A DNA stretch of 64,000 nucleotides from Escherichia coli (lineage in GTDB: Bacteria > Pseudomonadota > Gammaproteobacteria > Enterobacterales > Enterobacteriaceae), in assembly GCF_003334385.1 (NCBI RefSeq), contig NZ_QOWN01000005.1; one strand, written 5' to 3'. Shown here in pieces: positions 24,120 to 24,914 of this stretch (its first letter is position 1; every line of letters starts with the position of its first letter). A program made the translations under genes and the position numbers. Below the pieces are notes generated by a model, which saw nothing but the letters and a program-made list of their open reading frames with translations, made no database searches and was not told the DNA's origin.

Positions 24120-24914
24120 TTGAAAAAACTGAAACTGCATGGCTTTAATAATCTGACCAAAAGTCTGAGTTTTTGTATTTACGATATCTGCTACGCCAAA
24201 ACTGCCGAAGAGCGCGACGGTTATATTGCTTATATCGATGAACTCTATAATGCCAACCGTCTGACCGAAATCCTGTCAGAAACCTGTTCCATTATCGGGG
24301 CTAATATTCTTAACATCGCCCGCCAGGATTACGAACCACAGGGTGCCAGCGTCACTATTCTGGTGAGTGAAGAACCGGTTGACCCGAAACTCATCGACAA
24401 AACAGAACACCCCGGCCCACTGCCAGAAACGGTCGTTGCCCATCTTGATAAAAGTCATATTTGCGTACATACCTACCCGGAAAGTCATCCTGAAGGCGGT
24501 TTATGTACCTTCCGCGCCGATATTGAAGTCTCTACCTGCGGCGTGATTTCTCCGCTGAAGGCGCTGAATTACCTGATCCACCAGCTTGAGTCCGATATCG
24601 TAACCATTGATTATCGCGTGCGCGGTTTTACCCGCGACATTAACGGTATGAAGCACTTTATCGACCATGAGATTAATTCGATTCAGAACTTTATGTCTGA
24701 CGATATGAAGGCGCTGTATGACATGGTGGATGTGAACGTCTATCAGGAAAATATCTTCCATACCAAGATGTTGCTTAAAGAGTTCGACCTTAAGCACTAC
24801 ATGTTCCACACCAAACCGGAAGACTTAACCGACAGCGAGCGCCAGGAAATTACCGCTGCGCTGTGGAAAGAAATGCGCGAGATTTATTACGGGCGCAATA
24901 TGCCAGCTGTTTAA
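24120..24914 (+). CDS. speD: S-adenosylmethionine decarboxylase proenzyme
   Basis: 264-aa translation recognised as SpeD; TTG initiation codon at 24120-24122. Confidence 0.93.

Follow-up and report, generated by a model that had tools for sequence, protein, structure and literature searches.

What does it mean for a bacterial gene to start with a codon other than ATG, and do several such genes in one stretch of chromosome share anything beyond the codon itself? The question was raised by a stretch of Escherichia coli DNA of 64,000 nucleotides (the window), in which a reading made from the letters without database searches had placed a TTG start on speD and GTG starts on acnB, secM, htrE and panC. 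That sequence-only reading had proposed that lowered initiation efficiency may tune the expression of these genes, and had offered the list mainly as a caution for automated annotation. Initiation at GUG and UUG is textbook knowledge, both codons being decoded as fMet in an SD-dependent manner. The answer reached in this analysis is that the six such starts in the window (four GUG, the UUG of speD and an AUU of pcnB) are very probably genuine, curated starts of ordinary E. coli genes, with the speD UUG and the acnB GUG kept by selection. All six would be read by the initiator fMet-tRNA after SD-guided binding of the 30S subunit.

The window corresponds to the reverse complement of the K-12 MG1655 chromosome (NC_000913.3) from approximately 95.7 to 159.7 kb, running from gluQ to murF, save for two deletions. 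By these deletions the window strain is not K-12: 108 nt are missing from the yacH repeats and 787 nt at a hofB-hofC fusion. The yacH gene (window ~28547-29950, + strand) encodes 581 aa versus 617 aa in K-12 as a result of the deletion in its internal repeats, and strain SCU-104 differs there too. At hofB-hofC (window ~42495-44285, + strand; junction ~43529-43542), the sequence deleted relative to K-12 is flanked by a 14-nt repeat, and the deletion results in an in-frame fusion with an ORF of 596 aa; the undeleted form was found in all eight best-matching complete E. coli genomes. In a base-by-base comparison, SCU-104 and K-12 each fell out of register with the window beyond approximately 28.5 kb because of indels. 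A 3-kb piece of the window around the finding has a match in all 5,426 complete E. coli genomes. Several matches to Rfam families above the gathering score were also recorded elsewhere in the window: PssrA (53494-53583, - strand), overlapping the ftsZ start region; tp2 (36580-36693, + strand), antisense at the pdhR-aceE junction; STnc40 (47778-47847, - strand), upstream of mutT; and two copies of the REP-type naRNA4 (47181-47374, - strand).

Gene 5' ends were mapped with blastn, each of 56 K-12 genes being represented by its initial 80 nt and the 40 nt before them, and 55 starts were placed (hofC is missing from the mapping). The mapping showed the gene identities speD, acnB, secM, htrE and panC to have been right. 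The five non-ATG codons are all present in the sequence where they had been placed, and each is identical to the curated RefSeq start of K-12, with product lengths the same as in K-12. The starts of htrE, panC, speD and acnB are also identical in the PGAP annotation of a second, unrelated strain. All five codons are in frame, lie at the 5' edge of the conserved coding region and yield full-length products. The earlier list was incomplete, as the ATT start of pcnB was absent from it. The coordinates of the starts and of the elements around them are collected in Table 1.

Table 1. Start codons and associated initiation elements in the window (positions are those of the window)
Feature	Position	Strand	Basis or remark
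pcnB start codon ATT	576..578	+	K-12 b0143, PGAP
htrE start codon GTG	4276..4278	+	Sequence, K-12 b0139, PGAP
panC SD AAGGAG	10894-10899	+	Overlaps panB stop (10893-10895), which is 11 nt before GTG
panC start codon GTG	10907..10909	+	Sequence, K-12 b0133, PGAP
speD SD AAGGAG	24103..24108	+	11 nt before TTG; overlaps speE stop TAA (24102-24104)
speD start codon TTG	24120..24122	+	Sequence, K-12 b0120, PGAP
speD CDS (S-adenosylmethionine decarboxylase proenzyme, 264 aa)	24120..24914	+	K-12/PGAP annotation
acnB translation-initiation block, -24..+24	28064..28111	-	Nucleotide-level conservation; SD GAGGAG at 28095-28100
Predicted RyhB pairing site on acnB mRNA, -20..+5	28083..28107	-	RNAduplex
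acnB start codon GTG	28085..28087	-	Sequence, K-12 b0118
secM start codon GTG	51100..51102	-	Sequence, K-12 b0097, NP_414639.2

Is the window unusual in its start codons? The 55 mapped starts comprise 49 ATG, four GTG, one TTG and one ATT, whereas ATG, GTG and TTG account for 83, 14 and 3% of starts genome-wide in E. coli. Five GTG or TTG starts were thus observed (9%) against 9.35 expected from the genome-wide share of ~17% (binomial P(X>=5)=0.97; P(X<=5)=0.076). An enrichment of non-ATG starts in the window was rejected by this test, the count being slightly below expectation; the codons had therefore been read correctly, but they are not in excess. The five agree with the near-cognate GUG and UUG starts of E. 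coli at large in codon, SD context and fMet decoding, and the only departure is that the window is slightly poorer in them than expected. As a group, the six starts are not enriched and have no collective meaning. Since all five codons and the pcnB ATT stand in the reference annotation, without excess, the finding as such was already known.

The rarest start in the window, and the only truly non-canonical one, is the ATT of pcnB. The genes infC and pcnB are the two confirmed cases of AUU starts in E. coli, and the pcnB of the window is exactly the documented case. How strong these codons are as starts has been measured in reporters. In a dual-reporter study, GUG was equal to AUG, while UUG and AUU gave 6-8-fold less product (PMC3592434). 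In another study, initiation relative to AUG amounted to 10-100% for GUG and UUG and to 1-2% for AUU. The proposal of lowered initiation efficiency thus stands for UUG and is doubtful for GUG. As UUG and AUU are weak but GUG is about as good as AUG, the inference that the codon tunes expression is reasonable for speD and pcnB and doubtful for the four GTG genes.

If GUG costs so little, are the non-ATG codons simply neutral accidents, drifting at genes whose expression level is uncritical, with nothing tuned by them? The frequency of such codons in the window, at or below the genomic background, agrees with this explanation, as does the equality of GUG and AUG in the one reporter system cited above. 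Genes with an ATG start in the same loci also switch occasionally to GTG (speE in 4/79, cueO in 2/66, yacL in 1/46 and gcd in 2/20). Neutral drift of this kind predicts a codon free to change, and for two of the genes the conservation surveys speak against it.

For speD, a scan for SpeD in species-representative genomes yielded loci from 80 Enterobacterales species with 78-99% protein identity, ranging from Escherichia to Photorhabdus, Budvicia and Sodalis. The start codon is TTG in 80/80. In the same 80 sequences, none of 18 fourfold-degenerate sites is invariant, and among 62 synonymous third positions of codons for invariant amino acids, only one is; codon 2, directly after the start, encodes K, Q, H, S, N or R. 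The species share a phylogeny, so the counts are not independent, and the synonymous-site control was taken on the same tree. Because the protein would be unchanged with A or G as the first base, this pattern argues that the T itself of the speD start is under purifying selection. The surroundings of the codon are conserved as well: positions -3 to -1 are nearly always AAA, a strong SD (GGGGGTGA or GGAGGTGA) lies at -14 to -7 in the other genera, and speE is directly upstream of speD in 80/80 loci, mostly with a gap of 0-30 nt. In four farther gammaproteobacteria, speD starts with TTG in a Permianibacter-like genome, in Marinobacterium and in Neptunomonas, with GTG in Gallaecimonas and with ATG in none. 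In our literature search, no paper on the conservation of the speD start codon was found. In the 'complete genome' of the E. coli strain HT-948, a Keio-style FRT scar (locus 1531-1600) replaces speD right after the retained TTG, from which HT-948 is recognized as a strain with an engineered deletion; beyond the scar, this record has adiY and adiC where yacL and acnB are expected.

The acnB start is GTG in 31/31 species whose loci reach it, and here the conservation is not confined to the codon. The 31 species differ very little from -24 to +24, even at the synonymous sites of codons 2-8, and normal synonymous variation sets in from codon 9. Within E. coli, a 61-mer around the start (window 28057-28117) is identical in 5425/5426 genomes. 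From this nucleotide-level conservation, the acnB GUG too is judged to be under purifying selection. Drift does not readily explain why the codons of speD and acnB are invariant in sequences whose synonymous sites are saturated, and as a general account of the window it is a tentative possibility. For htrE, panC and secM, where no indication was obtained that the choice of codon matters, neutrality is possible; GTG was retained in the sampled E. coli variants around the panC and secM starts, and a PanC protein search for other genera returned E. coli variants only.

Why would acnB keep a GUG? The GUG is probably kept as part of a conserved initiation region that doubles as the pairing site of the iron-responsive sRNA RyhB. 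Binding itself is known from the literature: in-line probing showed RyhB to be paired with the initiation region of acnB, toeprint assays showed an approximately 10-fold inhibition of 30S binding in vitro, and repression of acnB was lost with the RyhB variant 'mutstart', in which 6 nt are mutated (PMC4150767). The gene is accordingly a documented member, together with sodB, of the RyhB-repressed mRNAs that are paired at the ribosome-binding site. In the present analysis, the single-stranded core of RyhB (sequence from K-12 b4451) was paired with acnB positions -20 to +5 by RNAduplex, giving -24.7 kcal/mol against -14.2 +/- 3.2 for 1000 shuffles, a value reached by 0.2% of the shuffles; the duplex with full-length RyhB was no better than shuffles. 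In the predicted duplex, the acnB GUG lies mid-way in an 8-bp helix formed by GUCGUGCU with RyhB AGCACGAC, its G pairing with a C, and a change of GUG to AUG or UUG would cost a predicted 5.8 kcal/mol. The G of the acnB start may therefore be fixed by RyhB pairing. Such a fixation of the start codon itself is proposed here and goes beyond what is said of RyhB targets in the consulted text of PMC4150767. If it holds, the constraint on the acnB codon would come from pairing with an sRNA and not from initiation strength. For speD, the invariance of the TTG argues that this weak codon in particular is selected. The tuning proposal is thereby supported only in part.

The same conservation could have a cause independent of RyhB. 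On that account, initiation strength or mRNA structure would be what preserves the acnB GUG, and its overlap with a stretch complementary to RyhB would be incidental. The conserved block reaches +24, well past the predicted duplex; RyhB pairing does not account for positions +6 to +24, and other constraints therefore act on the region. Against incidental complementarity stand the reported pairing, the block to 30S binding and the loss of repression described above, together with a predicted duplex stronger than 99.8% of shuffles in which the G of the start sits at the centre of the helix. That RyhB has no part in the choice of codon is therefore held to be doubtful, and conservation as a RyhB pairing site remains the preferred reading for acnB.

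Why would speD keep a UUG? Probably, SpeD output is set jointly by a start that is weak or regulated, by the strong SD and by coupling to speE. The coupling part of this proposal concerns panC as well. Stop-to-start gaps on the same strand are 15 nt for speE-speD and 11 nt for panB-panC, and because the upstream stop overlaps the SD at these distances from the start, we infer that some of the ribosomes initiating at both genes probably come directly from termination at the gene before. In this they resemble operon coupling systems with a stop in or next to the downstream SD, the speE stop lying on the speD SD and the panB stop on the panC SD alike; they differ in that coupling is read here from the spacing, and in that the speD TTG persists without an upstream speE. 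Three of the four farther gammaproteobacteria lack speE upstream of speD, and coupling is therefore not the reason for the TTG.

A more specific reason for the speD UUG would be that it makes SpeD synthesis responsive to polyamines, as in Igarashi's polyamine modulon, in which initiation depends on UUG or GUG or on a distant SD. In this modulon, initiation at UUG and GUG is enhanced by polyamines, as has been documented for cya, spoT, cra, uvrY, frr and gshA, and replacing UUG with AUG abolishes the effect (PMC4405209). The E. coli speD has both hallmarks of this inefficient-start class, as it starts at UUG and its SD is at a distance of 11 nt, and it shares with it a connection to polyamine metabolism. 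The UUG is invariant across species, and there is no conserved RNA structure to serve as another explanation: RNAalifold predicted no pairs around the speD start, and no Rfam match was found at the speD or acnB starts. Yet speD is absent from the published list of modulon members (PMC4405209), and a polyamine response of its translation is accordingly speculation. No paper that ties the speD UUG to regulation was found in the literature searched. Polyamines that stimulate an enzyme of polyamine biosynthesis would moreover constitute a positive feedback, which is not obviously adaptive, and a need for low SpeD output fits the data equally well. Retention of the UUG for a polyamine response is thus considered unlikely. 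The same holds for a joint account in which the speD UUG is a selected regulatory device, perhaps sensing polyamine or initiation-factor status, and the acnB GUG is in parallel fixed by RyhB pairing; we would give this combination little credence. What we favor for speD is the general form, in which a weak or regulated start with a strong SD helps to set SpeD output.

Could one or more of the starts have been misannotated? The candidates would be an upstream ATG for acnB, an upstream GTG or TTG or a downstream ATG at +23 for secM, and a downstream ATG for htrE. In E. coli, acnB does have in-frame ATGs 9 and 7 codons upstream of its GTG. As starts they are excluded by the other species: in 9/31 species there is no in-frame ATG, GTG or TTG between the GTG and the nearest upstream stop, and in Yersinia a stop lies 6 codons upstream, with GTG and SD unchanged. 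For speD, the TTG is the sole ATG, GTG or TTG from the in-frame speE stop 6 codons upstream to at least 80 codons downstream. In htrE, a stop lies 7 codons before the GTG, and no other canonical start follows that stop until the ATG at codon +40, initiation at which would delete the signal peptide. In panC, the stretch from the stop at -20 to the GTG contains no candidate start. None of speD, htrE and panC thus has an alternative that would preserve the conserved N-terminus or the signal peptide. By inspection, SD-like sequences precede speD (AAGGAG, 11 nt upstream), panC (AAGGAG, 7 nt), acnB (GAGGAG, 7 nt) and htrE (AGGA, 8 nt). The N-termini of SpeD and AcnB align from residue 1 across species, as do those of PanC in PDB homologues; the AcnB structure 1L5J begins MLEEYRK and the PanC structure 1IHO begins MLIIETL, the same N-terminus as from the GTG. 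The E. coli-type SpeD (24120-24914, + strand) has no sequence relative among solved structures at E <= 1e-5.

On sequence alone, secM has the least secure start. In-frame GTG and TTG codons lie at -25 and -51 and an ATG at +23, and the SD is weak (GGGA only, 10 nt upstream). The start reportedly was revised once already, by Sarker, Rudd and Oliver in 2000. With the upstream GTG and TTG and the weak SD, the secM start thus rests on curation and on that published revision. Just upstream of it, a four-codon mini-ORF (AUG GCA AUA ACG UGA; window 51099-51113, - strand) was noted, the UGA of which overlaps the GUG as GUGA; it may have arisen by chance or serve in coupling.

N-terminal peptides or initiation profiling had been named by the sequence-only reading as the means of checking the starts. 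For panC, such data are found in the literature: an N-terminal peptide from the GTG together with Ribo-RET support is given in the TRAINSPOTTER supplement of a 2026 N-terminomics study (PMC13245402). Among the entries listed in that supplement, panC is the sole gene of the six, and the TetRP supplement of initiation and N-terminal data contains none of them. In the searchable supplements, no direct N-terminal or initiation-profiling data were found for speD, acnB, secM and htrE. With K-12 curation and PGAP in agreement, with the panC peptide, and with the constraints on acnB, speD and htrE set out above, misannotation of one or more of these starts is highly improbable, even with upstream candidates at acnB and secM and one earlier revision at secM.

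The caution for automated annotation was fair and is valid, as the upstream ATGs of acnB illustrate, although curated pipelines already cope. A further instance concerns SpeD. Some genomes of Erwinia and its relatives have an ATG or GTG 2-3 codons ahead of the conserved speD TTG, and SpeD is annotated from there (MKLQKLKLHGF), so that some Erwinia entries begin upstream of the conserved start. Initiation at the upstream codon is unlikely, as it is too near to the SD, and these entries are probably a systematic misannotation.

In conclusion, start codons as such matter little in this window, for every reference annotation contains them and their frequency is that of the background. Two modest additions go beyond annotation: the speD UUG is deeply conserved, and the acnB GUG is located within a predicted RyhB site. 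In acnB, pairing with an sRNA may dictate that the codon is GUG and not AUG and, if this were to apply more widely, it would provide one concrete reason why non-AUG starts are retained. A weak UUG that is fixed across an order in a gene of polyamine biosynthesis suggests translational control of SpeD. If it truly served polyamine sensing, the speD UUG would do in bacteria, through another mechanism, what the polyamine-sensing uORF does in the control of eukaryotic AdoMetDC.
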